Source: a virus. From it: a stretch of 52,559 nucleotides of DNA. The stretch lies in the IMG/VR virus record IMGVR_UViG_3300023099_000002, positions 1 to 52,559 of that record, one strand, 5' to 3'. A program made the position numbers and the translations under genes. The notes below the pieces were generated by a model. The model did not search any database. It was not told where the DNA came from and saw nothing but the letters and a program-made list of their open reading frames with translations. Shown here piece by piece: positions 15,474 through 51,643 of the stretch; the stretch's first letter is position 1; every line of letters begins with the position of its first letter.

Positions 15474-15982
15474 AAGTACTAATACTCACAAGCGCATTCG
15501 TTACTGCTATGACCGGGCAAGCGTCAATAATTGGTGGGCCAAATGGATCTATAGAATATTTTAACGCATCGTATTATAATGGGAATGCGGTATGCCCTCT
15601 ATGGGAGGCGATATACTTCCCTACACAGTTCGCAGCTGCTGCGCCATTTGATACGCTTGATATACCTTTGCTCGATAGTCAGGTACAGCAAACAAACCTT
15701 GCCTATACAGTGCCCGTAACGAGCAGTAGTGATACTATTACCATAACTATACCGGCAGGAAGGCAGCTTAGCGGGTTCGATGTCAATCCAGCCACTGATA
15801 GCGCAAGGATAGCATTATACACAGCGGCGGGTGTCCAGTTCGTACCGGCAGACACTTATAAGCAAGGGAGAGTAACCCCGGTTACTCTGGATGAGGCATT
15901 CTCTAACACGGTAGCTACAACGGTTAAGGCTATACGCTCGGCAGGTACTGGTTCTGTAAGGATAAATTTTAAAATATGGTGA
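15470..15982 (+). CDS. tail-fibre-module protein with a signal-like N-terminus
   Basis: ATGA overlap. N-terminus MKVLILTSAFVTAMTGQAS. Confidence 0.55.
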   Translation: MKVLILTSAFVTAMTGQASIIGGPNGSIEYFNASYYNGNAVCPLWEAIYFPTQFAAAAPFDTLDIPLLDSQVQQTNLAYTVPVTSSSDTITITIPAGRQLSGFDVNPATDSARIALYTAAGVQFVPADTYKQGRVTPVTLDEAFSNTVATTVKAIRSAGTGSVRINFKIW

Positions 15983-15983
15983 T

Positions 15984-16820
15984 ATGGGAAGGATACTAAT
16001 GATTGTTTTAATGATGCTTAGCCACACGATTATGGCAAGCAATGGGCAGGTATCACCTAAGATACAGACCAGCGGTGTGATGCTGCCAACTGGAATGATA
16101 GATAAACCAACAGTTGCAGGGCCGGGTATTTTAGTAGATACATCTGGCAGGGTGTTAATTGACAGTGTAGTTACCATGACATGGGCAAGGTCGCTGGATA
16201 GCTTCAATACGCTCAAAGCTGCTATAGCGGCACGCATAACCACGGCATTGGCAGCAAGCACTTATACGCCAAGAGCACGCACAATTACTATCGCTGGTGT
16301 TACACAGGATCTGACAGCTAACAGAACATGGACACCAACCACGGCAAATATTGCGGAGAGCGGCAACCTGTATTATACTGACGCACGGGCACAAGCAGCA
16401 ATTACAGCCGGATCAGGAATAAGTATTACATCAGGAGTTGTAACTAATACTGCTCAATATACAGCACCTACGCTAAATGCCGCTACAAGGCCCATAAACA
16501 GCACTACATGGACTATCAGCAGCACCAAGCAGGCAAGTGTAGTATACTACATCACCATTAGCTGTACTGCTACCATATCAGGCCCTTCAAGTGGTCAGGT
16601 TGAGCTTCAGTATAGCACCAATGCGGGTAGTACATGGACTGCCTGCGGTATTGCAAAAAGCACCAATACTGTATCTTTGGCAGTAGTATTAAATAGTGTA
16701 GTTTCGCAGACCACGCCGATAGTAGCAATGGGAATACCCGCCAATGCGCTTATGCGTATGGTGTCTACTTCAAGTGGCACCACAACACTATCATACACCT
16801 ACGGATTTGAAACTTATTAA
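15984..16820 (+). CDS. tail fibre-like protein with a signal-like N-terminus
   Basis: N-terminus MGRILMIVLMMLSHTIMAS. Ala/Thr-rich shaft-like region and a Thr/Ser-rich beta C-terminus. Confidence 0.6.
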   Translation: MGRILMIVLMMLSHTIMASNGQVSPKIQTSGVMLPTGMIDKPTVAGPGILVDTSGRVLIDSVVTMTWARSLDSFNTLKAAIAARITTALAASTYTPRARTITIAGVTQDLTANRTWTPTTANIAESGNLYYTDARAQAAITAGSGISITSGVVTNTAQYTAPTLNAATRPINSTTWTISSTKQASVVYYITISCTATISGPSSGQVELQYSTNAGSTWTACGIAKSTNTVSLAVVLNSVVSQTTPIVAMGIPANALMRMVSTSSGTTTLSYTYGFETY

Positions 16821-17168: not shown

Positions 17169-17516
17169 ATGAATAAGATCCCAGTAATTCTATTATACGT
17201 AATTTTAGGGCTTTGCTTTTCTTCCCTGTTTGTATCTGCTGATACGGACAAGGCAAGTATTGACGAATTTGCTACATTGCTGTTTTTCACAATGCTGTAT
17301 TTTTGCGTAAAATATGGGATTGATGGATTCTTTCCGTATCATAATAGAGTTGTAGGGTTCACGCTTTGGTTAGCGGTAGGCAAATTTTTTGATGGCGTTT
17401 CATCATGGCGTAATGATGTAATCAGCATTGCCGAAATATCATGGGATATGTTGGGTTTGTTTATCCTGTATTGTAATTTAAAATCCGACTATAAAACCAT
17501 TAACGGCAAAAAATGA
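17169..17516 (+). CDS. membrane protein, holin-like (class uncertain)
   Basis: Three or four predicted TM helices. First of three coupled membrane-protein genes upstream of the lysins. Confidence 0.5.
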   Translation: MNKIPVILLYVILGLCFSSLFVSADTDKASIDEFATLLFFTMLYFCVKYGIDGFFPYHNRVVGFTLWLAVGKFFDGVSSWRNDVISIAEISWDMLGLFILYCNLKSDYKTINGKK

Positions 17517-19973: not shown

Positions 19974-20429
19974 ATGAAAGACAGAATAAGCATTGAGCGA
20001 ATATCAAAACTGCACCCAAAAGTACGGGATACATTTACGCGCTTCATAGATACCGCTGAGGCGGAACTGGGCATCACGCTAAGGGTAACGCAAGGCCTGC
20101 GAACTATAGCAGAACAGAACGCCTTATATGCGCAGGGGCGCACCGCACCCGGTAAGATAGTAACCAATGCAAGGGGAGGTAGTAGCTATCATAATTTTGG
20201 ACTCTCAATCGATGTTGCTGAATTGCAGGGAACCGCCATAAACTGGAACTTCGACTATAAGAAACTAGCACCGATAGCCGCAAGCATGGGTATTGAATGG
20301 GGCGGCCTGTTCCATAGCATAATCGATAAGCCTCATTTTCAGATAACATTCGGGTATAGTACGCAGAAACTGCTGCTGATGCCGAAAGATGCAAGCGGGT
20401 ATGTGGTAATGCCTAATGCAGTAGTATAA
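19974..20429 (+). CDS. endolysin, peptidase M15 (VanY / L-Ala-D-Glu peptidase-like)
   Basis: SYHNFGLSIDV (H-x6-D zinc motif), C-terminal DKPHFQ His, GRT.PG..VTNA motif. Confidence 0.85.
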   Translation: MKDRISIERISKLHPKVRDTFTRFIDTAEAELGITLRVTQGLRTIAEQNALYAQGRTAPGKIVTNARGGSSYHNFGLSIDVAELQGTAINWNFDYKKLAPIAASMGIEWGGLFHSIIDKPHFQITFGYSTQKLLLMPKDASGYVVMPNAVV

Positions 20430-21317: not shown

Positions 21318-21749
21318 TTATTTACCTGTACTTCCAAAACCACCAATGCCACGTTCACTATCTGGCAGCTGCTCTACCTCTACAAAAAGAGCCTGTTCGC
21401 ACTTAGCGAAAACCATCTGAGCGATGCGGTCGCCGTTGCTGATGTGATACGATTGAACGGAATGGTTAGTCATTATAACCTTTATTTCTCCCCTGTAGTC
21501 ACTGTCTATGGTGCCAGGCGAGTTAACAACCGTTATACCCATTACGGAAAGGCCGCTTCGGGGGCGTATCTGGGCTTCATATCCTTCTGGTATGGCGATA
21601 TGTATGCCGGTGGGTATTACCTTCACGCATCCGTGGTGTATGTATGTGCCCTGCTTAGGTATATTAGCCGTAAGATCCACCGCTGCGGCTCCTGATGTCT
21701 GGTATGCGGGGAGGTGGTGTGCGGACTTGTTTATTATTTTTATTTCCAT
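21318..21749 (-). CDS. dut: dUTP diphosphatase
   Basis: All five dUTPase motifs are present: AAAVDL, PRSGL, GTIDSDYRGE, RIAQMV and RGIGGFGSTG. Confidence 0.95.
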   Translation of the reverse strand: MEIKIINKSAHHLPAYQTSGAAAVDLTANIPKQGTYIHHGCVKVIPTGIHIAIPEGYEAQIRPRSGLSVMGITVVNSPGTIDSDYRGEIKVIMTNHSVQSYHISNGDRIAQMVFAKCEQALFVEVEQLPDSERGIGGFGSTGK

Positions 21750-21779: not shown

Positions 21780-22151
21780 TTACTGGTTTTTAATACGTTT
21801 AAAATCTCTACAATCCCCCATCCTGTCAAGATATTTACTAAATGCATATTTCGCACTACAGCTATCATTGAACAATGCTATATCGCCTCCCATTTCTTCA
21901 TAAAAGCAGTATCCAAGATCATTAACACTTCTCATGATGCGAGTTCCTAGTTCCCCCCTGTATATAACTGCATATTTTCGCCTACATTCACTATATTCTA
22001 CTTGCGTTTCTACAGGCATTTTAAAATCACATGAATATATGCACTCATTGTTTTCTACGGTATCAACCGATTTTGCGGGTTCAATATTTTGATTTGTTCT
22101 GCATCCGCTCACCGTCACGGCAAGCAGTAGTAATGTTAGTGTGTATTTCAT
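21780..22151 (-). CDS. lipoprotein
   Basis: MKYTLTLLLLAVTVSGC: signal peptide plus lipobox Cys. Mature part is Cys-rich. Confidence 0.65.
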   Translation of the reverse strand: MKYTLTLLLLAVTVSGCRTNQNIEPAKSVDTVENNECIYSCDFKMPVETQVEYSECRRKYAVIYRGELGTRIMRSVNDLGYCFYEEMGGDIALFNDSCSAKYAFSKYLDRMGDCRDFKRIKNQ

Positions 22152-34788: not shown

Positions 34789-35358
34789 ATGAATAAGAAA
34801 TATAACGTTATTTACGCAGACCCGCCTTGGACATACGATAATACATCCGTTAAGTCTGAAGAATCAGGTAAAGAGATATCAATTGATGGCAGGTATGACT
34901 TAATGACTATGCAAAAACTTTTTGAAATGCCTATTAAGGAAATTACAGAAAAGGACTGCGTGTTGTTTATGTGGGCAACTAATCCGTTATTGCCTGAAGC
35001 ATTAGAGCTAATGAAAAAATGGGGCTTTAAATATAAGACTATGCTCACATGGAAGAAAACAAGCTGTTCTGGTTACTGGTTTATGGGGATAACAGAGCAT
35101 ATACTTTTCGGAGTAAAAGGAAATGTAAAGGCTTTTAGGTCAGGATTATTGAATTACCACGAATGTAAAAGTGGGCAGCACTCACAAAAGCCTCATTACT
35201 TTAGGGAATTGATATCCAAGGCGGTTAAAGACAGCATACCAGAGGCTAAAAAACTGGAATTATTTGCACGTTCACGGGAAGGAATGTTCCCTGACTATGA
35301 GTACGAAGGCTGGGACGTATACGGTAATCAAGTCAACAACTCAATAGTACTACCATAA
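34789..35358 (+). CDS. MT-A70-family N6-adenine DNA methyltransferase
   Basis: IYADPPWTY (DPPW), LFMWATN, WKK, HSQKP and ELFAR...GW..YGNQ motifs. Confidence 0.9.
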   Translation: MNKKYNVIYADPPWTYDNTSVKSEESGKEISIDGRYDLMTMQKLFEMPIKEITEKDCVLFMWATNPLLPEALELMKKWGFKYKTMLTWKKTSCSGYWFMGITEHILFGVKGNVKAFRSGLLNYHECKSGQHSQKPHYFRELISKAVKDSIPEAKKLELFARSREGMFPDYEYEGWDVYGNQVNNSIVLP

Positions 35359-36123: not shown

Positions 36124-36654
36124 ATGAAAAGAAGTTCGCTGAGCCTTAAATTAAGGTTTGAGGTATTTAAACGTGATAACTTTACTTGCCAATATTGTGG
36201 TAATTCTATCCCAAAGGTAGTTTTAGAGGTTGACCACATTCACCCAGTAAGCAAAGGGGGTAAAAACAATTCTGACAACCTTATAACATCATGTTTTGAT
36301 TGCAATAGAGGCAAATCAAACAATGAACTTACTGAAATAATACCTTCATTATCCGAAAAAACATCTATAATAAAGGAAAAAGAGTTACAATATAAGCACT
36401 TTATTAAAGCGCAGCAGGAGGTTGAAGCAAGAATTGCCGAAGAAATAAATAATATTGATAATACTTTTACCAAATACTTTGCAGGATATCAGCTAAATGA
36501 ATTATTTAAAAATAGCTCACTTAAAAACTTTATATCAAAAATTGGGTACATACAAGTTAAAGAAAATTTATTGGAGGCAATTAGCCGAACTAATGAAAGT
36601 GAACACGCTATAAAGTATTTCTGTGCTATCTGTTGGAGACAAATTAAATCATAA
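36124..36654 (+). CDS. HNH endonuclease (free-standing)
   Basis: CQYCG....LEVDHIHPVSKGGKNNSDNLITSCFDCNRGK motif. Confidence 0.9.
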   Translation: MKRSSLSLKLRFEVFKRDNFTCQYCGNSIPKVVLEVDHIHPVSKGGKNNSDNLITSCFDCNRGKSNNELTEIIPSLSEKTSIIKEKELQYKHFIKAQQEVEARIAEEINNIDNTFTKYFAGYQLNELFKNSSLKNFISKIGYIQVKENLLEAISRTNESEHAIKYFCAICWRQIKS

Positions 36655-39999: not shown

Positions 40000-40470
40000 A
40001 TGGCTGCACCGGTACAAAATCAGTTTTGGAAACAAAGAAGTAAACATGGCCGTGATGTTCTTTTCGCTACTGCTGATTTACTTTGGGATTCAGCCTGTGA
40101 ATATTTTCAATACTGCGATGATAACCCAATACTAACTGTTGAGTTTAACGGAAAGGATGCAGTAGAGTGCATTGTACCTAAAATGAGAGCTTACACACTA
40201 TCAGGATTATGTTTATATCTTGATTGCGGTACTAATTATTTTAGGCAATTCAAAGAATCAGAATTAGGCAAGACTAAAGATTTTTCGTTTATCATATCAC
40301 GTATAGAGGAAACTTGTTATACTCAAAAGTTCGAAGGGGCTGCTGCTGGTGTGCTAAATGCTAACATAATTTCAAGAGATCTTGGGCTTGCTGACAAGCA
40401 AATAAATGAAAATACGCACACTGTAAGTGATGATATGCTCAGGAGTATTGCAGATAAACTTAATGCTTGA
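40000..40470 (+). CDS. terS: terminase small subunit
   Basis: N-terminal FWKQRSKHGRD.LF....LW..ACEYFQYCDDNP and AYTLSGLCLYL motifs typical of a phage TerS family. Immediately upstream of terL. Confidence 0.6.
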   Translation: MAAPVQNQFWKQRSKHGRDVLFATADLLWDSACEYFQYCDDNPILTVEFNGKDAVECIVPKMRAYTLSGLCLYLDCGTNYFRQFKESELGKTKDFSFIISRIEETCYTQKFEGAAAGVLNANIISRDLGLADKQINENTHTVSDDMLRSIADKLNA

Positions 40471-41861
40471 TTAACCCAGTACTTGCATCTAAATTCATGT
40501 CCCGCCTGACGCAATCAGAGCGGGATATTTTATTATCTACTGGTGGGATAGTGCCGGTTAATGATATATACATGCCTTATTGGGGACAATATCAACGTCA
40601 TAAAATATTCTATGGTGGTCGTGGTAGCGGTAAGTCTAAATATATTGCTCAGGATCTGGTGAATAAATGCGCCAACCATACATACTTTAAGTACCAATAT
40701 TCCCGAAAGCACCAGGTAGACATAAAAGAGAGCCAATATGAGCTACTGAAGCAGACAATCAGCGAGTATAAGCTATGGCGTGACTTCACATTCAATGCAT
40801 CTACGCTACGAATTACCCACAGATCTGGAAATTGTTTCATAGCGAAAGGAATGGATGACCCGGAAAAATCAAAGGGAACAGTAGATCTTAATGGTTTTTG
40901 GGGGGAGGAAATAACCGAGTTTGACCAAGAAGATATTGTGGGTATTAATCAGAACCTACGTACACTTAAAGGGCCAATAGAGGCCGTTTATAGCTTCAAT
41001 CCTATCCATGAGGAACATTGGGTGCGACATTATTTTTTCTCTCAACAGGATGCGCATAAACTGAAAGAGGATTTCGTTAACAGTGTAGCAATACGCAGCA
41101 CATTGTACCATAATCACTTCATAAATCAGGAACAATATGCCAATGAATTGATAATCGGTGCAAGCGGCAATCAGAATATCATAAAAGTGGTCTTAGAGGG
41201 CGATTGGGGTATAACAGAGAACGGCAACCCGTGGCTTCATGCATTCCGTGATATTGGTCTTAAAAATAGTCATATTGCATCGGTGCCATTCATGCAATCA
41301 TACCCGGTTTACCTCACATTCGACATTAACGCAGATCCGCTAAGCTGTACGGCATGGCAGATGACAGAGCGCAAGGGCGGCATCGGTTGTTTCCTTCATT
41401 GCATAAATGAGTTTGGTGGTCATATCAAGGTTGAGGACATATGTCAGCATATACGTGCGGCATACCCATCAAGCATATTTTACATCACCGGTGATAGATC
41501 AGGGCAGAATCAGGACGTAGGGCGTAACCAGACGATATACCAGATTATACAATCTCTTCTAAACCTGAGCGATAAGCAACTACTGCTAGAAACGCATAAC
41601 CTTGAGCACGCAGACAGCCGGTTGCTGTGTAATGCCATGTTTACACACTATCCTATACTGATAGACCCCAAGTGTAAGAACCTGATTAACGACTGCCGCA
41701 AAGCTACGGTAGACCCAGATAGCGTGAAAGGCTCACAACTACTCAAAGACCGTGGCAACTACAAAATGGATTACTTCGATGGCATGCGTTACCTGATGCA
41801 GCGCATGTTCAATAAGTACATAAAAGATCAATATCTTGCCGTTCTTAATAAAAATAAGTAA
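40467..41861 (+). CDS. terL: terminase large subunit
   Basis: Walker A FYGGRGSGKSK, a 464-aa ATPase plus nuclease layout (PBSX/Terminase_3-like by recollection). TTG at 40467 overlaps the terS stop. Alternative ATG at 40497. Confidence 0.9.
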   Translation: MINPVLASKFMSRLTQSERDILLSTGGIVPVNDIYMPYWGQYQRHKIFYGGRGSGKSKYIAQDLVNKCANHTYFKYQYSRKHQVDIKESQYELLKQTISEYKLWRDFTFNASTLRITHRSGNCFIAKGMDDPEKSKGTVDLNGFWGEEITEFDQEDIVGINQNLRTLKGPIEAVYSFNPIHEEHWVRHYFFSQQDAHKLKEDFVNSVAIRSTLYHNHFINQEQYANELIIGASGNQNIIKVVLEGDWGITENGNPWLHAFRDIGLKNSHIASVPFMQSYPVYLTFDINADPLSCTAWQMTERKGGIGCFLHCINEFGGHIKVEDICQHIRAAYPSSIFYITGDRSGQNQDVGRNQTIYQIIQSLLNLSDKQLLLETHNLEHADSRLLCNAMFTHYPILIDPKCKNLINDCRKATVDPDSVKGSQLLKDRGNYKMDYFDGMRYLMQRMFNKYIKDQYLAVLNKNK

Positions 41862-41869
41862 TATTGCTT

Positions 41870-42427
41870 ATGACTTACAAAGACAATCCGGATTTTGTCG
41901 CTGTATATACACACGAGCCAACCGGTACTATATTTTACTCACCAACAGAGATTTACGGGTATCACAAGAGCCGGGAAATGGCCATGCAGGAGCAAGACAC
42001 CTACAGCCGGTGCGGCATTTCTAAAGAAGTTCTACAGTCTTTCACTGATACCCTGCTGTCACACGCGAATAAGCAGCTGAATTCAGATACACTACGCACA
42101 GATATAGGCGTAATAGCCAATAACATAAAGTACCGAATGACTACCATAGTGGACCAGCAGTGCGCTATACGCATGGGCGCATTGGCATGTATGGTTGAAG
42201 GGGAACCGCATGACCGTGTTGTTGATGCGTGGACGCAGAAGAAAGTAAGAATGGCTAATGAACACCCTGATATTTATGATTTTTTTTTGCACTTGGGTAT
42301 CGCATTTACACCGGAATATGCAGCAGCCTTGCGTGGTTTAACGGCAAGGGAATATTTTCAACAGAGGGATCAGATACTAAGTGGTCTGACTGCAATATCC
42401 ACCCTCAAACAATCGCCAACGACATAA
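41870..42427 (+). CDS. hypothetical protein downstream of terL
   Basis: ATG 41870 (the track uses TTG 41864). 185 aa. Confidence 0.6.
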   Translation: MTYKDNPDFVAVYTHEPTGTIFYSPTEIYGYHKSREMAMQEQDTYSRCGISKEVLQSFTDTLLSHANKQLNSDTLRTDIGVIANNIKYRMTTIVDQQCAIRMGALACMVEGEPHDRVVDAWTQKKVRMANEHPDIYDFFLHLGIAFTPEYAAALRGLTAREYFQQRDQILSGLTAISTLKQSPTT

Positions 42428-42435
42428 GAGACGGC

Positions 42436-42591
42436 GTGCTGCAATCTGCACTTGCACGGAGCGAGGGCAACCAAAGGGATGCGGATTATCTTATTGACTG
42501 TGAATATTTCGAGTACTACCACAGATGCTACCAATACAAAAAGTACACTGATACAGTTAAAGAACAAATGAAAACCAATACAACTGCCTAA
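42436..42591 (+). CDS. 51-aa Cys/Tyr-rich peptide (weak, GTG start)
   Basis: Absent from the track. Fills an otherwise empty 166-nt gap and ends 2 nt before the next ATG. Confidence 0.25.
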   Translation: MLQSALARSEGNQRDADYLIDCEYFEYYHRCYQYKKYTDTVKEQMKTNTTA

Positions 42592-42593
42592 CC

Positions 42594-43094
42594 ATGATAA
42601 AAACAATTGAACACAACGGGAATTTATATCCCGCATTCCAGGCAGAAGGATTTGCCGCTAAGTTTGCTATCCCTTTTGCGCAGCAGGTATGTAAGGGTGT
42701 AGGTTATGATGTAGGGTGTAACCGTAAAGAATGGGCATTCCCGGGGGCATTGTGTATTGATCCTGCTATTAATCCTGAATACGATGCCTATAATTTACCC
42801 CATGGGGTAGCTGATTACATATTCAGTTCGCACTGTGCGGAACATTTGCAGGATTGGGTGTCAGTTTTAGACTATTGGCAGACCAAAATAAAGACAGGTG
42901 GTGTACTATTTCTATACCTACCCGACTACTCACAAACATACTGGCGGCCACAACATAACCGGAAGCATATACACAGTTTCACGCCTGAGATAATCAGAAA
43001 CTACCTGAAAGATCGTGGATGGCTGAATATATTCGTAAGCGGTGTTGACCTGAATAACAGTTTCATGGCGATGGCTCAAAACGGTGATATATGA
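42594..43094 (+). CDS. class I SAM-dependent methyltransferase-like protein
   Basis: VGYDVGCN (motif I-like), DYIFSSHCAEHL and GGVLFLYLP motifs. Confidence 0.55.
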   Translation: MIKTIEHNGNLYPAFQAEGFAAKFAIPFAQQVCKGVGYDVGCNRKEWAFPGALCIDPAINPEYDAYNLPHGVADYIFSSHCAEHLQDWVSVLDYWQTKIKTGGVLFLYLPDYSQTYWRPQHNRKHIHSFTPEIIRNYLKDRGWLNIFVSGVDLNNSFMAMAQNGDI

Positions 43095-44386
43095 AAACAG
43101 CCTTAGTAATACCCATGTTCAATAGGCCAAAGTACGTGGCACAATGCTTTGCATCACTCGAAAATGCTAACATACCCGATAATGTCCTGATAGTATTGGT
43201 TGACGATGGCAGCACCGAACAGATGCCGTTTTTGTCATTGCCTCATAAGTATATTAAGCAGACAAATACAGGCGTTAAGGGGGCATTGCTTGCTGGGTTA
43301 GAGTATGCCATCAAGCAGGGGTGCGGTATGTTTATTAATCTTGATAGTGATGCTATAGTAAAGCCTGATTTCATAGAGGAATTACTAAAGGTGCGAAAAG
43401 AATCAGGAGAAACATATATTGTTTCAGGATTTAATAATCCCAAAGAGCCAGTAACCGATCATTACGAAAGTTATTGCATTAAGGCGCGCGCCAATGGTAT
43501 TAATATGCTTTTTGACAAAAAGATATACACTGCATTTATTAAACCTGCACTTAAAGAAGCAGCAGGTAATTGGGACTTTTCGGCATCTACAAAGTGTTGT
43601 GGGGTAGCCATTACAATCCCATCAGTGGTACAGCACATAGGATTGCAATCCAGCATGGGGCATACAGGTGCAGACGTAGCCCAAGACTTCAAGCAGTTGT
43701 CATTGCCTAACGTCACCCTATTCGGTATAGATAGCCATGATGTAATGGGCATAGAACGAGCCGCAACCATAAGCCAGCGTGATATAGATTTTGGCGGCGT
43801 GAAGATCATTACTGAAGATCTATTTACTAAAGGCGGCAATAACGAGGTAAGGCGCAATGATTACAGCCGTTTCATGCTTAAAGAACTAACTAAGCAGTTT
43901 GATACCAGCCATGTGCTAACAATACATGCTGATGGGTATATAGTGAACTTTAACGCATGGGATAACGATTGGCTACAGTACGACTACATAGGTGCTACAT
44001 GGATTTATAAAGATGGCATGAATGTAGGTAATGGTGGCTTCAGCTTGCGAAGTAAAAAGCTATGCGATATACTAGCTGATAATCCATTAGAACACATGCA
44101 CCCTGAGGATCACTGTATATGCCGGATATACCGCAAGAGCTTAGAAAATGATTTCGGTATTAAATTCGCTCCTGCCGAGGTGGCCGATAAGTTCAGCATA
44201 GAGGCTTACGGTTCTAATGCTATCCGCGGAGCCAATATGTACTCCGGGCAATTCGGATTTCATAGCAGGCATGTTGATTTCTCTCATAGTGGCATACCTG
44301 CTGAAATGTTACTACCCGCCACATATCCGGTAAGCTCAAAATTGAGCGCACTAAATAAGAAAAATACTGTACATTTGACACGTTAA
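43091..44386 (+). CDS. two-domain glycosyltransferase: N-terminal GT-A/GT2 plus a C-terminal DUF5672-like domain
   Basis: ALVIPMFNRP...LVDDGS...NLDSDA (DxD) motifs, with C-terminal GNGGFSLRSKK. ATGA-coupled to the methyltransferase. Confidence 0.7.
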   Translation: MKTALVIPMFNRPKYVAQCFASLENANIPDNVLIVLVDDGSTEQMPFLSLPHKYIKQTNTGVKGALLAGLEYAIKQGCGMFINLDSDAIVKPDFIEELLKVRKESGETYIVSGFNNPKEPVTDHYESYCIKARANGINMLFDKKIYTAFIKPALKEAAGNWDFSASTKCCGVAITIPSVVQHIGLQSSMGHTGADVAQDFKQLSLPNVTLFGIDSHDVMGIERAATISQRDIDFGGVKIITEDLFTKGGNNEVRRNDYSRFMLKELTKQFDTSHVLTIHADGYIVNFNAWDNDWLQYDYIGATWIYKDGMNVGNGGFSLRSKKLCDILADNPLEHMHPEDHCICRIYRKSLENDFGIKFAPAEVADKFSIEAYGSNAIRGANMYSGQFGFHSRHVDFSHSGIPAEMLLPATYPVSSKLSALNKKNTVHLTR

Positions 44387-44415
44387 TCTATTTTCCGGTG
44401 GAGGAACACGAATAA

Positions 44416-44445
44416 AAAATGCCCGCAATAATATGCGGGCATTTT
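44416..44445. terminator. terminator hairpin between the GT gene and the HNH cassette
   Basis: AAAATGCCCGCA-ATAATA-TGCGGGCATTTT (12 bp including the A/T tracts). Confidence 0.75.
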
Positions 44446-44447
44446 CG

Positions 44448-44455
44448 TATCTTTG
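44448..44455 (+). promoter_or_regulatory. -7 box TATCTTTG (HNH cassette promoter)
   Basis: Directly after the terminator hairpin and 21 nt before ATG 44476. Confidence 0.5.
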
Positions 44456-44475
44456 AATTGCTAAAAACAAAAGAT

Positions 44476-45021
44476 ATGAACGAAGTTACGGAAATATTCC
44501 TACCCATTAAAGGCTACGAAGGTATTTATGAAATATCAAACCTCGGAAGAGTAAAATCTTTAGACAGACCTGTAAATACTGTATTAGGCAAGAAAAAGGT
44601 AAGCGCCACTAGAATAATCAAGGGACAAATAAAAAAACAATTTATAGACATCGGTGGATATAAGGTTGTGAGTTTATCTGTAAAATGCAAAACTGTAAGC
44701 CGAAAAGTACATTGTTTAGTTGCTCAGTCTTTTATACCTAATCCTAACCACATTGATTGTAATAAGCAGAACAACCATGTTACTAATTTAGAATGGTGTA
44801 CAGCTTCTGAAAACATGAGGCATGCATATTCTAATAATTTGGTTAGAATAAGTAAGGGTGAAAACAGGCATAATTCAAGATTTACTAATGAGCAAGCTAA
44901 AGCTATATATAGTAGTCCATTGTCAGCAGAAGCATTATCTTTAGAATACAACGTTCACATAAGAACCATATATTCCATAAAACAAGGAGTAAATTATTCA
45001 TCAATAACAAAAGGATTATAA
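44476..45021 (+). CDS. HNH homing endonuclease (NUMOD4 plus HNH_3 type)
   Basis: GYEGIYEISNLGRVKS (NUMOD4) and HIDCNKQNNHVTNLEWCTASENMRHA motifs. The track start at 44419 lies inside a terminator hairpin. Confidence 0.85.
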   Translation: MNEVTEIFLPIKGYEGIYEISNLGRVKSLDRPVNTVLGKKKVSATRIIKGQIKKQFIDIGGYKVVSLSVKCKTVSRKVHCLVAQSFIPNPNHIDCNKQNNHVTNLEWCTASENMRHAYSNNLVRISKGENRHNSRFTNEQAKAIYSSPLSAEALSLEYNVHIRTIYSIKQGVNYSSITKGL

Positions 45022-45022
45022 A

Positions 45023-45724
45023 ATGACAATAATACCAAACCAGCCATTTGGCCACGGCGATATTCATTTTACAATAACACTTGCAAAAATAATAGCAGAC
45101 GGCAGACCTATTTTATGGCCTATATTCCCACAATTTGTAGAGGGATTTAATAGGGCTTTCCCAGATATTACATTCGTTGATTGGAGAACATTACAGATAG
45201 ACTACAACAATACAAATCAATATGAATGTATAGTAGAAAACGTAGGTGTTTGCACTATTTTGCCTTTCAGGTTTGCAGGTGATTTGTTAAAGTTGCCTTA
45301 TAGATATGTGATGAAGGCAAAGTACCTACTTTATGGCTTAGACTGGCAGATATGGAAAGAGCAGGCGATGTGGGTAAGGGATACTAGCAAAGAGTACGAC
45401 ATTGCATTTGATAATTATATAGGCTCAAAAAATCCTAATATTCTCATTAATAATACCTTTGGTAGCGAAGGAAATTTAAGGATTAATATCCCAATAAAAG
45501 GAGTTGAAATGAAAATAACTAATGGGATCAGCCTGTTTGATTATTCCAAATTGATCGAAGATGCCACCGAAATACACACCGTATCCACCTCAATTATTTA
45601 CCTGCTTGAAATGCTCGATCTTACAGCAAAGGAGATCCACCTGTACCCAAGAGTTCCTATAGAAACTGATTTTAAAAACATTGATTATTTGCTTCAAAAG
45701 CATAAATATATACCGCATGCATAG
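45023..45724 (+). CDS. hypothetical protein, possibly a GT-B/heptosyltransferase-like sugar transferase (tentative)
   Basis: N-terminal G.GD pattern and C-terminal SLFDYSKLIEDATEIHTVSTSIIYL, resembling GT9 donor-site regions. Confidence 0.35.
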   Translation: MTIIPNQPFGHGDIHFTITLAKIIADGRPILWPIFPQFVEGFNRAFPDITFVDWRTLQIDYNNTNQYECIVENVGVCTILPFRFAGDLLKLPYRYVMKAKYLLYGLDWQIWKEQAMWVRDTSKEYDIAFDNYIGSKNPNILINNTFGSEGNLRINIPIKGVEMKITNGISLFDYSKLIEDATEIHTVSTSIIYLLEMLDLTAKEIHLYPRVPIETDFKNIDYLLQKHKYIPHA

Positions 45725-45953
45725 CCATTTACTAATAGTACCATATAGGCCGGTTACCTTCGTTCCGCATATTCAAAATGAAGATGCTCCAACTACCAAT
45801 AACGATTCATGCTATGCTGTTCAATATAATGGGTCATATAGAGACACTACTTTTTTGGCAACCGGCAAACCATTTGTATTTTTAGCCTTATTGATAGCAT
45901 TAGTGTTTATTTCTATCTATGTTTATACAACAATAAAAGAATCCTATGCATAA
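45717..45953 (+). CDS. 78-aa protein with a C-terminal TM helix
   Basis: ATG 45717 overlaps the upstream stop. Overlaps the next ATG by 8 nt. Confidence 0.4.
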   Translation: MHSHLLIVPYRPVTFVPHIQNEDAPTTNNDSCYAVQYNGSYRDTTFLATGKPFVFLALLIALVFISIYVYTTIKESYA

Positions 45954-46545
45954 GGTAAGTGTAATAATACCATCAACATTAGATAGATATGGAATGAATA
46001 TGCGAATAGCCGATATTTATGACAATCAAGACTATAAAAACAAACAGATAATATTGTTTACAGGGGATGGTAGCATAGGCGCAAAGCGTAACGGCTTATG
46101 TAATCTGGCTACTGGTGATATCATCCTGCACATGGATTCAGACGATCTGTACCAGCCAGATTGGATAACCCGAAGTGTTGAAGCGCTCATATCATCAGAC
46201 GCAAACATTACCGGCCTATCATCATGCTATTTCCATGATACAACCCGTAATAACGTGCATGAATACATCGCACCACAGGGGCAACTGTACTTGGTTGGTG
46301 CAACATTATGCTACTGGCGTAGACAATGGGAGAAAAAGCCGTTTAAAGACATACAGATGGGGGAAGACACGGACTTTATTACCAATTCAGGCAGATTATA
46401 TGCCCATGATTACAAGTCGGGATTTATGGCTACAATACACGGGAATAACACATGCAGCCATTTGGCACTACCGGCAATGAAAAGGCTGCACCAATATGAT
46501 GCAGCCCAAATAATTAATTCGTTTTACGCTTCGCCTACAGTCTGA
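45946..46545 (+). CDS. family-2 glycosyltransferase (short GT-A)
   Basis: VSVIIPS, GSIGAKRN and HMDSDD motifs. Confidence 0.75.
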   Translation: MHKVSVIIPSTLDRYGMNMRIADIYDNQDYKNKQIILFTGDGSIGAKRNGLCNLATGDIILHMDSDDLYQPDWITRSVEALISSDANITGLSSCYFHDTTRNNVHEYIAPQGQLYLVGATLCYWRRQWEKKPFKDIQMGEDTDFITNSGRLYAHDYKSGFMATIHGNNTCSHLALPAMKRLHQYDAAQIINSFYASPTV

Positions 46546-46970
46546 ATAAATGGGTTCTCATCATTTATGCGCTGCCTGTTCTCCGCCATAGCGGTAGACT
46601 GTGCACCCATCATTTTTTGTAGTTCGTCTTTAAATGCTATGTATTCTGCCATATCATGCATACCCATTTCTTTTGCTGGCGCAATACCCATTATCTGTAG
46701 TGTCATTTCTATCTGAGAATATGTGTACTGTTCAGCCTCGGCAATAGCCTTGTATGTTTCATAAGGTATCCTTAGCATGAAGTCGCTGAAGATCATCATA
46801 GCCTTACGGGTTTTATTCACAATGTCCGTTACCATAGGCCCGTCATAGATTGTTTCATCGGCCCATTTCTGTATCAACTTCAATACTTCATTCTCATGAT
46901 CATTCTTCATCTGCTGCATTATCTGCGCTGATGTTACGATTGTCCTTGTCTTGGGTGGTTGTTTTTTCAT
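46524..46970 (-). CDS. hypothetical protein
   Basis: 148-aa ORF. Its 3' end overlaps the convergent GT2 gene by 22 nt. Confidence 0.6.
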   Translation of the reverse strand: MKKQPPKTRTIVTSAQIMQQMKNDHENEVLKLIQKWADETIYDGPMVTDIVNKTRKAMMIFSDFMLRIPYETYKAIAEAEQYTYSQIEMTLQIMGIAPAKEMGMHDMAEYIAFKDELQKMMGAQSTAMAENRQRINDENPFIQTVGEA

Positions 46971-46976
46971 TTTTGG

Positions 46977-47219
46977 TTAGTTTTTACGTACATATTGATA
47001 AACATTCTTAATGTATGTGTTGTAGTAGCTGCCGGATGATGCAGCGCGCTTTAATTCCTGCCACATGCGGGATGGTATCTGCCGATATTCATATTCGGTA
47101 TGGTTGCGCAGGAATACTTTTAGTGTGCCTTTCTCCCCCTTTTTATCAGGCTCGTATGTCACATGAGTGAACATACTACTGGTATTGGTATAGAACGTTT
47201 CAAGTTTTCCGGCCTGCAT
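46977..47219 (-). CDS. KTSC-domain protein
   Basis: L.V.F.N...YEY..IP...W.ELK.A.S.GSYYN..IK..Y.Y pattern. ATG lies 5 nt after a minus-strand TATATTTG. Confidence 0.65.
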   Translation of the reverse strand: MQAGKLETFYTNTSSMFTHVTYEPDKKGEKGTLKVFLRNHTEYEYRQIPSRMWQELKRAASSGSYYNTYIKNVYQYVRKN

Positions 47220-47223
47220 ACGG

Positions 47224-47231
47224 CAAATATA
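47224..47231 (-). promoter_or_regulatory. -7 box TATATTTG (minus strand), leaderless spacing
   Basis: Minus-strand ATG at 47219 lies 5 nt after the G. Confidence 0.55.
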
Positions 47232-47233
47232 GT

Positions 47234-47241
47234 TAATTTTG
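47234..47241 (+). promoter_or_regulatory. -7 box TAATTTTG, leaderless spacing (tape-measure-like gene)
   Basis: ATG 47247 lies 6 nt after the G. Back-to-back with the minus-strand box 2 nt away. Confidence 0.55.
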
Positions 47242-47246
47242 TTTTT

Positions 47247-50228
47247 ATGGCATCAGAGGTATACGAAATAATACAGAAACTATCGCTTGAAGTTACAGGT
47301 AATGACAGCCTTAAGGTTCAGATTGACGCACTAAAAAAGCAAAGCGAAGCAATTGACGAACTGTCAAAGAAACGTGACCTGTTAAATAAGAACATACCTA
47401 AAGACCCTATACCAGAACGAGCCGAACGGGCAAAAAAGGCTGTAGTAGAGTTGACGGCCAAAATAGATGCACAGACAGCGGCGTTAACTAAGCAGGTGCA
47501 ACAGCAGCAGATAGTACAAAGATCGGCACAGCAGGAGTTAGGGTTGATACAGAAGCTGACAGATAAAATAACAGATTTACAGCATGCCAGGGAGCGGCAA
47601 ACAGATGCGGCGGGCGTAAGGCAAACCACATCAGAAATAGGTAAGCTACGCAGGGAATTGGCAGATCTGACAACTGAAGCTAAAGCTGCGCAGTCTGGTG
47701 GGTTATTAAGTTCGCTATTCGGCATAGGCAGTGGGTCGGGTGCTGGGAAACAGGTGTTACAGGGCTTGCTTGGAGGGCTTGGTATAGGTGTTGGGTTTAG
47801 TATAATTCCGGCACTTACAAGCTCACTGATTGAATTTGCATCCGCCGAACTTGATACTATCGGTAATAGCAAAAAACTTATAGATGCTAACAGGGCATTG
47901 GAATCAAGCTTCGATTCACTTGGCGGTGAACTGCAAAAACTTTTAGAACTGCAAAAAACAATATCGGTATTAGGGCAGGATTTTGCAGGTAGGCAAGGTC
48001 TTGAAAAATTTCTTTATGATCAAAGTACAGATGGACTTAAAAGGCAAGCAGATGCAGTAAAGGCATTAGGGGTTGTTAACGGGGAAGTGTATAACGCTGA
48101 ACAAAATCAGCTTGAGGCGGCACAAAAATTAAGGCGTGATGAACTTGCGAATATAAATGAGAAACAGCAAGGGTTAGAGCGAATCCTGTCAATACTTGGA
48201 CCTATACAAAAAGCATCATTACAGGCCGGGGATTTATTTACTGACATATCTAATGTATTCTCTTCTGATGCGCCTAACGGAAGTAATAGGGCTGAACGAG
48301 ACGCCGTAATAGAAAGATTGAGAAAATCCGGATTGCCATTCGATATACAGCAGGAATTAGTAGCATCAGCAAAAACAGCGCAGGAAAGCGGAGCTAATAT
48401 ATATGATGCACTGCTAAATGTTGTAAAGAAATATGAAAATGAGGTAATTAAGACAAAGCAAACAGGACTTGATAAGCAGGCGGAAATAGACAATGCAAAT
48501 GTACAAAGACAAAGCAAGATAGCTGAAGAGTTATTTGAGCTTAATAAATCCTTACAGGAGCGAATTACCGCTAATATCCTGTCTGCTAAGCAGCAGCAAA
48601 CAGCAATACAATCTAAGTACGAGGATAATGTAACTGCACTGATCAATCTTAATGAGGCTGAGCGATTGGCAGCCCGTAAAAGGATAGAAAAGGAAAGGCA
48701 GGACGCAATATTAAAAGACGGCGAATTAGGAGTAGAGGCTAATAATAAATTCAATCAATTAAAGTTACAATCTGACAGAGAATACTATCGCAAACAAGGA
48801 GAAATATTAGACGCTGCGAATACCAGGCGCATACAAGCGGAGAAAACAGCCCGTGATATTATTGTACAATCACAGGTATCTACAACCGGAAGTATAGTAT
48901 CTACCAGCGCAGACGATGGAATACCTAATATAGTAGCCATTCAGGCCAACAGGAATGCTATTAAACGTCAACAGGATATAGCACTTGCTGAGCAGCGAAA
49001 TGCCGCTGTAGATGCAGCAAGGAAAGAAGGTGTCGATGTACAAAATATAGAATTGCAATTTGATCAGGCGAGAGCAGCATTAAGAGATAGGCAGCGCAGG
49101 GATGATATAAATGCAGAGCTAAAATATTACAGCGACCTTGCGAGCATAGCAAGAGAGAGGAGCGAGCAGATATTAGCTGATTTCCTTGCTCAGGGGACAC
49201 GTAGGGATAAAGCAGCGCAAGATTTCCTTAATGGGGATATTAGCGGTAGTAGGTTCCGAAATAATGCACGGCGTAATTTCTTAGATGCGCTGGATATCAA
49301 TAATGTACAGTCAGGAGCTATTGACGGGCAGATACAACAAGCGCAGGATGCATTGAGTAGCATATCCGGTAAGCCAGGAGCATCACAGGCGGATATAGAT
49401 AGAGCAAAGAAATCACTGGATGATCTGATTATTAAGAAAAACCAGCTTACCAATACTAAAGCAGAGTTGATAAGCAGCGAGAATATCCGGCAGCTAAATC
49501 AGGCATTGGATCTATATAACCAGCTGGCACAGTCTGCTGTACAGGCATATAATACCATTGCTGACGCTCGAAATAAAGACTTAGACAGGGAAATATCAGT
49601 AAGGGAACAAAGGGTAAGCGTGGCACTTAAACTGGCAGAGCGAGGCAATACTGAGGTTTTGGGGCTGGAACAAAAAAGGCTTAAAGAGTTGCAGGCAGAA
49701 AGGCGGAAAGATGCACTACAGCAACAGGCTATTAATAGCGCATTAGCAATAAGTTATGCCGCCGTGGCGTTCGCAAAGGCATTGGCAAACCCAGTAAGTG
49801 CCCTCGCCACCATAGCAGCAGGGGTTGCATTAGGTGCCACTATTTTTGGTGCCGTAAAGAGCTTTGAAGCCAGTAGTAAAACAGGGTTTTTTGATGGGGG
49901 TTATACGGGCGATAAAGGAACAAAAGAAGTAGCGGGTGTAGTACACGGCAGGGAGTTCGTAAGTACGGCTGAAACAACTGCCAAATACAGGCCAATACTT
50001 GAAGCTATGCACGATGGTACATTCCCAACAATGATGCCGGTATCTTATGCGAGGCCGGGCAACTATGCTACAAAGCAAGAGTTCGCCTCGCTCGAAAGTG
50101 CAATATATTCTGTAGCGGATGAGGTCAGGAATAAAGAAACTAAAAACATACAGGTTATGGATCAAAAAGGGTTATATCAGGCATCAGTGCAATATTCACA
50201 AAGGGAAAGAAATAAATATAGAAATTAA
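47247..50228 (+). CDS. tape-measure-like protein
   Basis: 993 aa, coiled-coil-rich, with a Gly-rich hydrophobic segment (GLLGGLGIGVGFSIIPAL) and C-terminal GGYTGDKG....AGVVHGREFV. Start trimmed to ATG 47247, 6 nt after TAATTTTG. Confidence 0.7.
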   Translation: MASEVYEIIQKLSLEVTGNDSLKVQIDALKKQSEAIDELSKKRDLLNKNIPKDPIPERAERAKKAVVELTAKIDAQTAALTKQVQQQQIVQRSAQQELGLIQKLTDKITDLQHARERQTDAAGVRQTTSEIGKLRRELADLTTEAKAAQSGGLLSSLFGIGSGSGAGKQVLQGLLGGLGIGVGFSIIPALTSSLIEFASAELDTIGNSKKLIDANRALESSFDSLGGELQKLLELQKTISVLGQDFAGRQGLEKFLYDQSTDGLKRQADAVKALGVVNGEVYNAEQNQLEAAQKLRRDELANINEKQQGLERILSILGPIQKASLQAGDLFTDISNVFSSDAPNGSNRAERDAVIERLRKSGLPFDIQQELVASAKTAQESGANIYDALLNVVKKYENEVIKTKQTGLDKQAEIDNANVQRQSKIAEELFELNKSLQERITANILSAKQQQTAIQSKYEDNVTALINLNEAERLAARKRIEKERQDAILKDGELGVEANNKFNQLKLQSDREYYRKQGEILDAANTRRIQAEKTARDIIVQSQVSTTGSIVSTSADDGIPNIVAIQANRNAIKRQQDIALAEQRNAAVDAARKEGVDVQNIELQFDQARAALRDRQRRDDINAELKYYSDLASIARERSEQILADFLAQGTRRDKAAQDFLNGDISGSRFRNNARRNFLDALDINNVQSGAIDGQIQQAQDALSSISGKPGASQADIDRAKKSLDDLIIKKNQLTNTKAELISSENIRQLNQALDLYNQLAQSAVQAYNTIADARNKDLDREISVREQRVSVALKLAERGNTEVLGLEQKRLKELQAERRKDALQQQAINSALAISYAAVAFAKALANPVSALATIAAGVALGATIFGAVKSFEASSKTGFFDGGYTGDKGTKEVAGVVHGREFVSTAETTAKYRPILEAMHDGTFPTMMPVSYARPGNYATKQEFASLESAIYSVADEVRNKETKNIQVMDQKGLYQASVQYSQRERNKYRN

Positions 50229-51217: not shown

Positions 51218-51643
51218 TTAAATTCCGATATACCAATAATCACCAGTGTGTACTATTGCGGAGTGAATACCAGTAAGCGCGATTACCTGCTTGCCGGTAT
51301 GCCCTGCGTAGTGGTATGGCGTAAGATAGCATTTAGATACACAGTTTAATGTATCAAAGGGAACATAGGATATGTAGGCGGATAATGTGCTTTTTGTGGT
51401 ATCCTCTATTGAAAATACGTATAAAGTATCTTCCAAATGAAATATGCCCGAAGTGTCACCATGCTTGAACGCAAAAAAGGTATCATTGCCGTTAATTCGC
51501 AGATTGTTAATTAGGGTATCACCATGCCAAAAACGTATAAATGAATAAGGGTTACCCGCAATCATTGGTATTGCAGAAGGTTGTTTTTTGCAGGATAGTA
51601 GCGATATTAATAGTATTGATAGTAACAGTGCAGTTTTTTTCAT
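51218..51643 (-). CDS. lipoprotein (opposite strand, inside the tail module)
   Basis: MKKTALLLSILLISLLSC: signal peptide plus lipobox Cys. ATG lies 5 nt after a minus-strand TACCTTTG. Confidence 0.7.
   Translation of the reverse strand: MKKTALLLSILLISLLSCKKQPSAIPMIAGNPYSFIRFWHGDTLINNLRINGNDTFFAFKHGDTSGIFHLEDTLYVFSIEDTTKSTLSAYISYVPFDTLNCVSKCYLTPYHYAGHTGKQVIALTGIHSAIVHTGDYWYIGI

Follow-up and report, generated by a model that had tools for sequence, protein, structure and literature searches.

The virus record IMGVR_UViG_3300023099_000002 of IMG/VR (positions 1 to 52,559; this whole stretch of ~52.5 kb is referred to as the window) represents an essentially complete phage genome and carries, behind its terminase genes, a gene cassette (42594-46545) that can be regarded with high confidence as a glycan-building system. 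The cassette comprises four soluble enzymes with five catalytic domains, namely a methyltransferase, a family 2 glycosyltransferase (GT2) fused to a DUF5672 domain, a predicted GT9-like glycosyltransferase (GT) of the GT-B type, and a second, short GT2, and what it makes during infection is very probably a short methylated chain of sugars. Judged by its genes, it seems to be a new phage glyco-cassette, non-homologous to that of mycobacteriophage Corndog and built on an unannotated GT9-like family together with DUF5672. Virion proteins are the leading candidate for the acceptor, although this part of the reading is tentative.

An original prediction, made from the DNA letters alone, had described a run of five open reading frames (ORFs) here, and all five are present. 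Its list missed a sixth ORF, a homing endonuclease gene that lies among them. The features of the cassette are as follows.

42594-43094, + strand: class I S-adenosylmethionine (SAM) methyltransferase, 166 amino acids (aa), first gene of the cassette (Methyltransf_23 at 4.1e-11)
43091-44386, + strand: predicted tandem glycosyltransferase, 431 aa, with N-terminal GT2 and C-terminal DUF5672 (PF00535, PF18922)
44416-44445, both strands: hairpin with a perfect 12-bp stem and a loop of 6 nucleotides (nt), flanked by A/T runs, a terminator-like match on either strand
44419-45021, + strand: NUMOD4/HNH homing endonuclease, 200-aa ORF (NUMOD4 at 3.3e-15, HNH_3 at 7e-7, phrog_59 at 2e-43)
45023-45724, + strand: compact GT-B-like glycosyltransferase, 233 aa, termed F233 (AlphaFold and Foldseek; family previously unannotated)
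45717-45953, + strand: 78-aa ORF with one hydrophobic segment and an ATG at 45717, doubtful as a gene
45946-46545, + strand: short GT2, 199 aa, last gene of the cassette (PF00535 at 4.6e-8; phrog_14775 at 5e-8)

The methyltransferase and the short GT2

Pfam matches were judged against the curated cutoffs in bits, and related viruses were represented by 78 IMG/VR loci retrieved through an alignment-based scan with the 233-aa family. The gene at 42594, which had been described as SAM-methyltransferase-like, reaches 43.3 bits against Methyltransf_23 (cutoff 27) and falls just below the cutoff for Methyltransf_11 (20.8 against 21.2 bits); it fits the class I SAM profile and carries motif I in the form GYDVGCN. 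Its stop codon overlaps the start of the fusion gene at 43091, its product has no membrane segment, and a homologue of it adjoins a member of the 233-aa family in 55-61 of the 78 viral loci. At the other end of the cassette, the short GT2 with its HMDSDD motif belongs to GT2 as had been proposed (33.6 bits against the PF00535 cutoff of 23.3), is soluble, and keeps the same position throughout the close clade.

All four cassette enzymes are without hydrophobic segments, with a maximum 19-residue hydropathy of 1.16 or less. The 78-aa ORF between F233 and the short GT2 had been taken for a membrane-anchored peptide of the system, and the hydrophobic segment is there (maximum Kyte-Doolittle 19-residue hydropathy of 2.59). 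Nevertheless, the ORF has no tblastn match in the 78 related viral loci, where its position is taken by unrelated small ORFs, often a KTSC-domain gene, and for this lack of conservation it was dropped as a component.

The GT2-DUF5672 fusion protein

The fusion protein is soluble and combines two Pfam domains. The N-terminal one (aa 5-115) matches PF00535 at 2.7e-16, with 60.4 bits against a cutoff of 23.3, and belongs to GT2; the C-terminal one (aa 255-391) matches PF18922 (DUF5672) at 1e-18, with 68 bits against a cutoff of 24.4. The DxD and GNGGFSLR motifs previously noted in it hold up together with both domains: D85-S-D87 of the LDSDA motif is invariant across 46 homologues, and GNGGFSLR (G313-R320) is invariant or nearly so in the same set, while 1239 homologues of the protein were found altogether. 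In addition, the N-terminal GT2 matches the PHROG 'GtrB-like O-antigen conversion' at 3e-7, over aa 1-105 only; this match spans the generic GT2 core and the protein has no membrane helices, so that membership in GtrB was rejected.

A PDB profile search with the fusion protein retrieves GT2 structures at 1e-14 for the N-terminal domain only, and no solved homologue of DUF5672 was found by sequence in that search. The AlphaFold model, with a predicted local distance difference test score (pLDDT) of 90, finds tandem GT-A enzymes over its full length in Foldseek, including COLGALT1 at 1e-11, K4 chondroitin polymerase and heparosan synthase, and its further matches include multi-domain GTs from phages and giant viruses, several of which bear a DUF5672 annotation. 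Since the full-length model matches enzymes with two GT-A domains, DUF5672 is predicted to be a second GT-A-like domain, and the fusion protein would be bifunctional, with two domains of the GT-A type. Human COLGALT1, the K4 polymerase of E. coli and the heparosan synthase of Pasteurella share with the fusion a two-domain GT-A architecture that aligns over the full length; however, sequence likeness to them is confined to the N-terminal GT2 domain, and there is no sign in the fusion of the repeating (polymerase) activity of the K4 and heparosan enzymes. In the L045 lineage, the equivalent enzyme is a 624-aa protein, and its second domain has heparosan synthase and KfiA as homologues (7e-23).

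A literature search for DUF5672 returned a single mention, in a study of type VII secretion effectors of Streptococcus suis. A scan of IMG/VR with the fusion protein as single query gave no match, and a genome scan with the fusion alignment retrieved mostly stand-alone DUF5672 genes. The domain is common in Patescibacteria, Saccharibacteria and a metagenome-assembled genome (MAG) of the Bifidobacteriaceae, and is present in giant viruses.

A compact GT9-like family

The 233-aa protein has no Pfam (E <= 0.1) or PHROG match, and in isolated phages its relatives carry no annotation beyond 'hypothetical protein'. The family counts 178 homologues in a 90%-clustered database and 1,548 clusters at 50% identity (E <= 1e-3), 322 of them at E <= 1e-30, and almost all of these clusters are phage-borne. 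The original prediction had suggested a GT-B-like protein at 45023; the predicted structure agrees with this, being closest to GT-B enzymes of family GT9, while profile matches that would name the family are missing. Thus, the alignment-based AlphaFold model (pLDDT 95.2, predicted template-modelling score 0.90) has as its best Foldseek match the GT9 protein 3tov of Veillonella (E 4e-3, probability 0.98), followed by TibC, WaaC and WaaF, with query-normalised TM-scores of ~0.5.

Three independent lines support a distant tie of F233 to GT9. First, the N-terminal beta1-GxGD segment of F233 aligns in hhalign with six GT9 proteins verified by Pfam (E 2.4e-4, probability 43%, 56 columns). Second, G12-D13 is invariant in F233 and aligns with the GD of GT9, whose counterpart in E. 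coli HepI, Asp13, is described as a strictly conserved catalytic base (bioRxiv 10.1101/2021.06.16.448588). Third, in six Flavobacteriaceae genomes a GT9 gene (PF01075 at 7e-18) stands immediately upstream of a DUF5672+GT2 fusion gene, in the slot that the 233-aa gene takes beside GT2+DUF5672 in phages. A jackhmmer link between F233 and GT9 is marginal (7e-4), and no GT9 chain was retrieved at E <= 10 in a PDB profile search with F233. The GT9 enzymes WaaC (HepI), WaaF and TibC/AAH are among the best structural matches of F233 and appear to share with it the N-terminal beta1-GxGD with its invariant Asp13, but they are 320-390 aa long. Because F233 fails the GT9 sequence profile, with no PF01075 match, and is ~100 residues shorter, it is best worded as GT9-like, a putative distant relative and not a member of GT9. 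The evidence for ADP-heptose, the donor of the GT9 family, is contextual: genes suggestive of heptose activation accompany F233 elsewhere, in the form of an HldE-like neighbour in cyanophage S-SM2 and a PfkB-type kinase in locus L070; the window contains no such genes.

Linkage, modularity and insertion behind the terminase

The genes that flank the cassette, and that help to delimit it, are the following.

40000-40470: terS (Pfam GP3_package)
40467-41861: terL (Terminase_3 at 7e-31)
41864-42427, + strand: 187-aa gene in the interval between terL and the cassette, upstream insertion boundary (homologues in 11 related loci)
46524-46970, - strand: conserved 148-aa gene, convergent with the last gene of the cassette, downstream boundary (155-164-aa minus-strand genes at this place in relatives)
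46977-47219, - strand: small KTSC-domain protein, 80 aa (Pfam KTSC at 1e-13)

The distance of ~730 nt noted between terL and the run is not empty but includes the conserved 187-aa gene, whose homologues in the 11 related loci invariably lie between terL and the methyltransferase, and relatives that lack the cassette have a gene of ~200 aa at the same position. The 187-aa gene and the methyltransferase are 166 nt apart, and a 51-aa ORF (42436-42591, + strand) fills this interval. Downstream, the run is not continuous with the virion genes, since the two minus-strand genes at 46524-46970 and 46977-47219 intervene before the 1021-aa gene. The KTSC gene has homologues in 7 related loci and, in relatives such as L001, it is one of the + strand genes within the cassette, with the 233-aa gene on one side and the short GT2 on the other, which suggests a loose association with the cassette; its minus-strand position here would therefore reflect a local inversion or rearrangement.

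The cassette genes form one functional unit, as their adjacency is conserved and some of them are fused. Wherever the context was inspected, in ~50-kb phages, in a phage of 144-199 kb and in a chromosome of Bacteroidetes, the fusion gene stands next to the 233-aa gene, and ~10 loci carry the 233-aa domain in a single polypeptide with GT2 or with both GT2 and DUF5672. Moreover, in a representative library about one quarter of the top 150 F233 matches are C-terminal domains of 410-830-aa proteins, with GT2, DUF5672 or methyltransferase as the only fusion partners. The unit is also modular. In the close relatives L012-L015, and in L018 and L024-L027, the DUF5672 domain is swapped for a separate FkbM-type methyltransferase, and in L060-L072 two F233 paralogues and the methyltransferase are part of an island with genes for GDP-mannose dehydratase/epimerase, a PfkB kinase, GT11, GT25 and GT1-like enzymes.

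All members of the close clade (TerL 41-61% identical) carry the cassette after terL, in the order terL, 187-aa gene, methyltransferase, GT2/DUF5672, 233-aa gene, GT2 and ~1000-aa gene. More distant relatives (L170, L172-L175; TerL 29-33% identical) have no cassette and keep the flanking genes, that is, terL followed by the ~200-aa, ~800-1100-aa, ~650-aa and ~550-aa genes. Since these distant relatives hold the flanking genes without the cassette, it is an accessory and apparently mobile insertion in the packaging/head gene array. The order of terL, a ~200-aa gene, a ~1000-aa coiled-coil protein and proteins of ~650 and ~550 aa is kept even in distant relatives.

Related genes also occur in bacterial chromosomes. 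In a Bacteroidetes MAG (GCA_018267965.1, locus L002; JAFDXK010000001.1, 6822-12710), genes for GT2/DUF5672, a member of the 233-aa family and GT2 come, without the methyltransferase, directly after a tandem array of six RebB (R-body) genes on the same strand; the region is not prophage-like and has arginine biosynthesis genes downstream. LanC-like (lanthionine synthetase C-like) genes adjoin DUF5672 GT genes in two Sphingobacteriia genomes (L087, 2617-11962; L160, 5740-10669), and in Mucilaginibacter and Parapedobacter DUF5672 genes stand beside LanC-like genes and further GTs. The LanC-like neighbours hint at a peptide-linked glycan, or may be a coincidence. Neither the RebB nor the LanC-like context is a classical polysaccharide export locus.

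A homing endonuclease within the cassette

The ORF at 44419-45021 combines NUMOD4 and HNH_3 domains, stands free between conserved genes and varies among relatives, as is typical of an HNH homing endonuclease gene, and it is best seen as a free-standing selfish element that lies inside the cassette and outside the glycan pathway. In most relatives the genes that flank it are adjacent or have only small ORFs between them, and in L012-L014 an HNH gene occupies another junction of the cassette; the HNH gene is a secondary insertion into the cassette. The hairpin at 44416-44445 marks the junction of the fusion gene and the insert and falls within the 5' end of the mechanically called ORF; for this reason the true start is probably the ATG at 44476. 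Between the hairpin and this ATG lies a TATCTTTG motif (44448-44455). Elsewhere in the window, at 36124-36654, there is another HNH gene that is unrelated to this one.

Virion proteins as candidate acceptors

Given that the window contains no genes for nucleotide-sugar synthesis, the cassette would have to rely on cytoplasmic sugar nucleotides supplied by the host. In the cytoplasm, its enzymes could add up to about four sugars, step by step, to a pre-existing acceptor, and the O-methyl group provided by the methyltransferase would probably cap the chain. If the acceptors are structural proteins of the phage (of the head or elsewhere in the virion), these would be O-glycosylated directly in the cytoplasm during synthesis, in the manner of Corndog, and the outcome would be a glycan coat on the particle. 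This reading is supported by the presence of the cassette in head/packaging blocks of several lineages and by a layout like that of Corndog. In L044-L047 the cassette directly follows the genes for portal, prohead protease and HK97 major capsid protein and precedes a DUF6712 gene, and of the 39 closer loci, 27 have it no more than nine genes away from a terminase, portal or capsid gene, with at least five different arrangements among them. In the window, too, the phage GTs are clustered in the structural gene region, as in the mycobacteriophages with glycosylated virions. The occurrence of TibC, a cytoplasmic protein heptosylator, among the structural neighbours of F233, and that of DUF5672 and multi-domain GTs in giant viruses of eukaryotes, lend it further support.

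Corndog, a mycobacteriophage of cluster O, encodes in gp35-gp38 one O-methyltransferase followed by three tightly packed GT genes, as here, and in its head-morphogenesis block the gene order runs terS, terL, gp33, gp34, methyltransferase, three GTs, two small genes and major head protein. Both phages have soluble enzymes and no recognisable lysogeny genes. Modification of the capsid and tail tube by the Corndog enzymes has been reported (PMC11600133, PMC12363180, after Freeman et al. 2023). Nevertheless, gp35-gp38 gave no significant hidden Markov model (HMM) or BLASTP match to the four cassette proteins, so that homology was rejected and the likeness is an analogy of layout, not family membership. 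Corndog also differs in having neither DUF5672 nor a member of the 233-aa family, in its actinobacterial host and in having known acceptors.

The original prediction had regarded the fibre-like proteins at 13088-16820 as obvious candidate acceptors in the cytoplasm. The foremost of them is the following.

13088-14728, + strand: candidate acceptor, 546-aa repeat protein with a Sec-type signal peptide (LQA|QN) and 18 D-(S/T)-(A/I/L/V/M/T) motifs

These 18 motifs compare with 3.2 expected (z = 8.5), and the protein is Ser/Thr-rich. The four ORFs of this region (13088-14728, 14718-15473, 15470-15982 and 15984-16820, all on the + strand) all begin with Sec-type signal-like N-termini, and two of them have Gln at +1 after the predicted cleavage (LQA|QN, AMA|QV). 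Gln after signal cleavage is the Q-rule of Bacteroidetes (PMC5837995) and has been seen in proteins of Porphyromonas phages (PMC10367356), and D-(S/T)-(A/I/L/V/M/T) is the sequon recognised in Bacteroidota by the general O-glycosylation system, whose targets are exported, non-cytoplasmic proteins (PMC8550257, PMC12871550). The proteins thus look like exported substrates of the periplasmic machinery of the host, which is why the phage probably infects a member of the Bacteroidota, and their export signals and this motif weaken the claim that they are acceptors in the cytoplasm. Exported proteins at the place expected for tail fibres, just upstream of the lysis genes, are unusual. Lipoprotein-like signals are also seen on small ORFs at 51218-51643 (- strand, LLSC), 21780-22151 (- strand, VSGC) and 17169-17516 (+ strand, LGLC), the first of which has 4 O-glycosylation motifs against 0.5 expected (z = 5.3).

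Several points weigh against virion proteins as acceptors. The acceptor, whichever it is, is inferred from the genes; the argument from position is statistically weak, as the loci are not independent and 'moron' genes also gather in late operons; and the Corndog enzymes have no sequence homology to the cassette proteins. Classical GT9 enzymes have lipid A-Kdo (Kdo, 3-deoxy-D-manno-octulosonic acid) as their substrate, and the pair of GT9 and DUF5672-GT2 genes in Flavobacteriaceae lies among housekeeping genes, which suggests envelope glycolipid synthesis. The S-SM2 member of F233 is found at a great distance from structural genes, in a large island of sugar genes that include those for heptose activation, and in the 144-199 kb phage F233 stands among small non-structural genes. 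Furthermore, the only strongly acceptor-like proteins of the window are exported ones with the periplasmic O-glycosylation motif of the host, and no capsid protein was identified by profile search in which acceptor features could be inspected. In sum, the earlier proposal of a module that places a methylated glycan on virion proteins stands as to the glycan-building module, and its virion acceptor is plausible and unproven. The probability left by this and the alternatives named below falls to other acceptors.

Host glycans and other acceptors

The alternative that fares best, although it is on the doubtful side, is that the cassette remodels a lipid-linked glycan of the host, either the lipopolysaccharide (LPS) core or, in a Bacteroidota host, the undecaprenyl-linked outer glycan of general protein O-glycosylation, at the cytoplasmic face of the inner membrane, with export left to the host; the effect would be an altered cell surface, which could block superinfection or keep progeny from sticking to debris, together with an altered glycan on exported proteins. 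Both the GT9 link and the sugar islands of cyanophages add weight to this possibility. The GT9-like fold and motif of F233 fit it, as do the Pfam GT9 genes directly upstream of DUF5672+GT2 in the six Flavobacteriaceae genomes, a non-phage context. Synechococcus phage S-SM2 carries a true F233 homologue (SSM2_195, annotated as hypothetical) in a ~14-gene sugar island (SSM2_191-204; NC_015279.1, 143601-155681, locus L247) with epimerases, a transketolase, a carbohydrate kinase, an HldE-like kinase/adenylyltransferase and a sugar pyrophosphorylase, and islands of the L070 type, with their Gmd/epimerase, PfkB kinase, GT11, GT25 and GT1-like genes, point in the same direction. The Microcystis phage Mel-JY01 has a run near-identical to that of the window (GT-A, methyltransferase, 233-aa family, further ORF and GT2). 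The cyanophage islands, however, are far larger than the cassette, include their own nucleotide-sugar synthesis, and lie away from structural genes in myoviruses of 175-190 kb. A phage flippase or priming enzyme would be unnecessary for such remodelling, because the host supplies them. In Bacteroidota, O-glycans are made on undecaprenyl phosphate by cytoplasmic GTs and are often O-methylated (PMC12871550), and the exported window proteins are highly enriched in the O-glycosylation motif.

On the other hand, none of the cassette enzymes has a membrane anchor, although a peripheral association is possible, and no wzx, wzy or ABC exporter gene accompanies the module in any context examined. A Pfam scan of all window ORFs of at least 150 aa, which defines the scope of the family negatives given here, found no match for an integrase, although it is temperate phages that typically carry the GTs known for surface conversion, and the cassette follows terL, or comes right after the capsid gene in L044-L047, instead of lying among early genes. 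DUF5672 is, moreover, common in bacteria without LPS (the Patescibacteria, Saccharibacteria and Bifidobacteriaceae MAG mentioned above) as well as found in giant viruses. Classical seroconversion of the Gtr type had already been judged unsupported for want of flippase, GtrA or GtrB-type genes, and the scan agrees, with no match for GtrA, a flippase, a priming phosphoglycosyltransferase or a polymerase; compared with the Gtr systems of temperate enterobacterial phages, the window has no recognisable GtrA, GtrC or integrase, and its GT2 is without the C-terminal membrane helices of GtrB.

In a specific form of takeover, which is clearly improbable, the soluble cassette enzymes would rewrite, in the cytoplasm and by means of extra sugars and a methyl cap, the undecaprenyl-linked outer glycan used in general O-glycosylation by the host, whose flippase and transferase would then decorate exported phage proteins and host surface proteins alike. 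It is equally improbable that the targets would be the product of 13088-14728, its three neighbours with signal peptides and the lipoprotein of 51218-51643.

Enzymes of the TibC/AAH type act on the repeat-rich passenger domains of autotransporters while these are still in the cytoplasm, and F233 might likewise glycosylate Ser/Thr residues in the repeats of 13088-14728 before Sec translocation, with the other cassette enzymes extending the chain, which nonetheless has to be considered quite unlikely. TibC is among the best structural matches of F233, and the repeat protein is rich in repeats and Ser/Thr and has a signal peptide; however, LPS heptosyltransferases match equally well, at TM-scores of only ~0.5, many phages have the cassette without such a repeat protein linked to it, the host periplasmic system (PMC12871550) already accounts for the motif of the repeats, and bulky cytoplasmic glycans could hinder Sec translocation.

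Glycosylation of phage DNA, yielding sugar-hypermodified bases that counter restriction, is very improbable. Phage GT-A and GT-B enzymes do glycosylate 5-hydroxymethylcytosine and 5-hydroxymethyluracil, some of the gene clusters that encode them are close to the terminase or to structural genes (bioRxiv 10.1101/2023.12.21.572611), and the cassette includes a methyltransferase; the DNA-glycosylating clusters of Pyle et al. have GT-A and GT-B enzymes that resemble those of LPS and teichoic acids, sometimes near the terminase. Nevertheless, the reaction needs a 5-hydroxymethylpyrimidine provided by a ThyS homologue or a TET/JBP-like dioxygenase and, in the post-replicative route, also a C5-DNA methyltransferase (bioRxiv 10.1101/2023.12.21.572611). 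The absence of hydroxymethylase and ThyS-like genes noted earlier is borne out and extends to these enzymes: none of ThyS, a hydroxymethylase, a TET/JBP-like dioxygenase or a C5-DNA methyltransferase has a match in the scan, nor is a precursor enzyme seen in the other annotated contexts. The window phage thus differs from the 5mYOX/ThyS and GT clusters in that their defining precursor enzymes were not found, and DNA glycosylation was rejected, including the TET-type route that the original prediction had overlooked. Besides, the cassette methyltransferase is of the small Methyltransf_23 type and not a C5-DNA methyltransferase, the dUTPase and MT-A70 genes point to ordinary DNA with N6-methyladenine, and F233 is fused only to GT and methyltransferase domains.

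Other features of the window

The window further encodes an MT-A70 DNA adenine methyltransferase (34789-35358), a dUTPase (21318-21749, - strand) and a VanY/Peptidase_M15 endolysin (19974-20429), all of them ordinary functions in a phage, which help to exclude DNA modification based on uracil or hydroxymethyl groups. The ORFs at 47163-50228 (1021 aa), 11-1669 and 1672-3321 have no Pfam or PHROG match; the 1021-aa gene and its companions lie upstream of the portal gene (5163-6971), so that the 1021-aa protein is not at the usual position of a tape measure. The structural proteins of the window gave no PHROG or Pfam match, and the major capsid protein is not identifiable by profile search. For a protein with a Pro/Thr/Ser linker (8599-9969), one relative was retrieved, which also bears the cassette. 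At the nucleotide level, the 6.9-kb region matched phages in GenBank only over short HNH stretches. Consensus scans performed no better than chance: 32 matches to sigma-70 promoters were found against 28.8 in shuffled sequence, 5 terminators against 5.8 in shuffled sequence, and 60 copies of the Bacteroidota -7 motif TAnnTTTG against 58 expected, so the motif is not enriched. Since the promoter and terminator scans match shuffled sequence, no claim on transcription units is drawn from them.

Implications for phage glycobiology

Virion glycans of mycobacteriophages shield the particles from antibodies and are relevant to phage therapy. To our knowledge, glycosylation of phage virions has been shown experimentally in mycobacteriophages only. 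The profile and Foldseek searches that had been proposed as a check find methyltransferase, GT-A, GT-A-like and GT-B-like folds in the cassette, with two consequences for annotation: a sizeable unannotated protein family gains a testable assignment as a compact GT9-like transferase, and DUF5672 can be assigned as a putative second GT-A-like domain. The cultured cyanophages S-SM2, S-T4 and Sf-CH5/8 of Synechococcus and Mel-JY01 of Microcystis carry F233, and the question of the acceptor could be settled there. If the acceptor is a host glycan, the cassette would represent a new route of surface remodelling for phages without recognisable lysogeny genes; and if the host O-glycan were taken over, this would be the first virus to reprogram bacterial general glycosylation for the decoration of its own exported proteins. 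The cassette is widespread in environmental and uncultured phages, with its marker F233 in ~1,500 clusters at 50% identity, and virus-directed glycan synthesis in phages of Gram-negative-type hosts may thus exceed what current annotation indicates.

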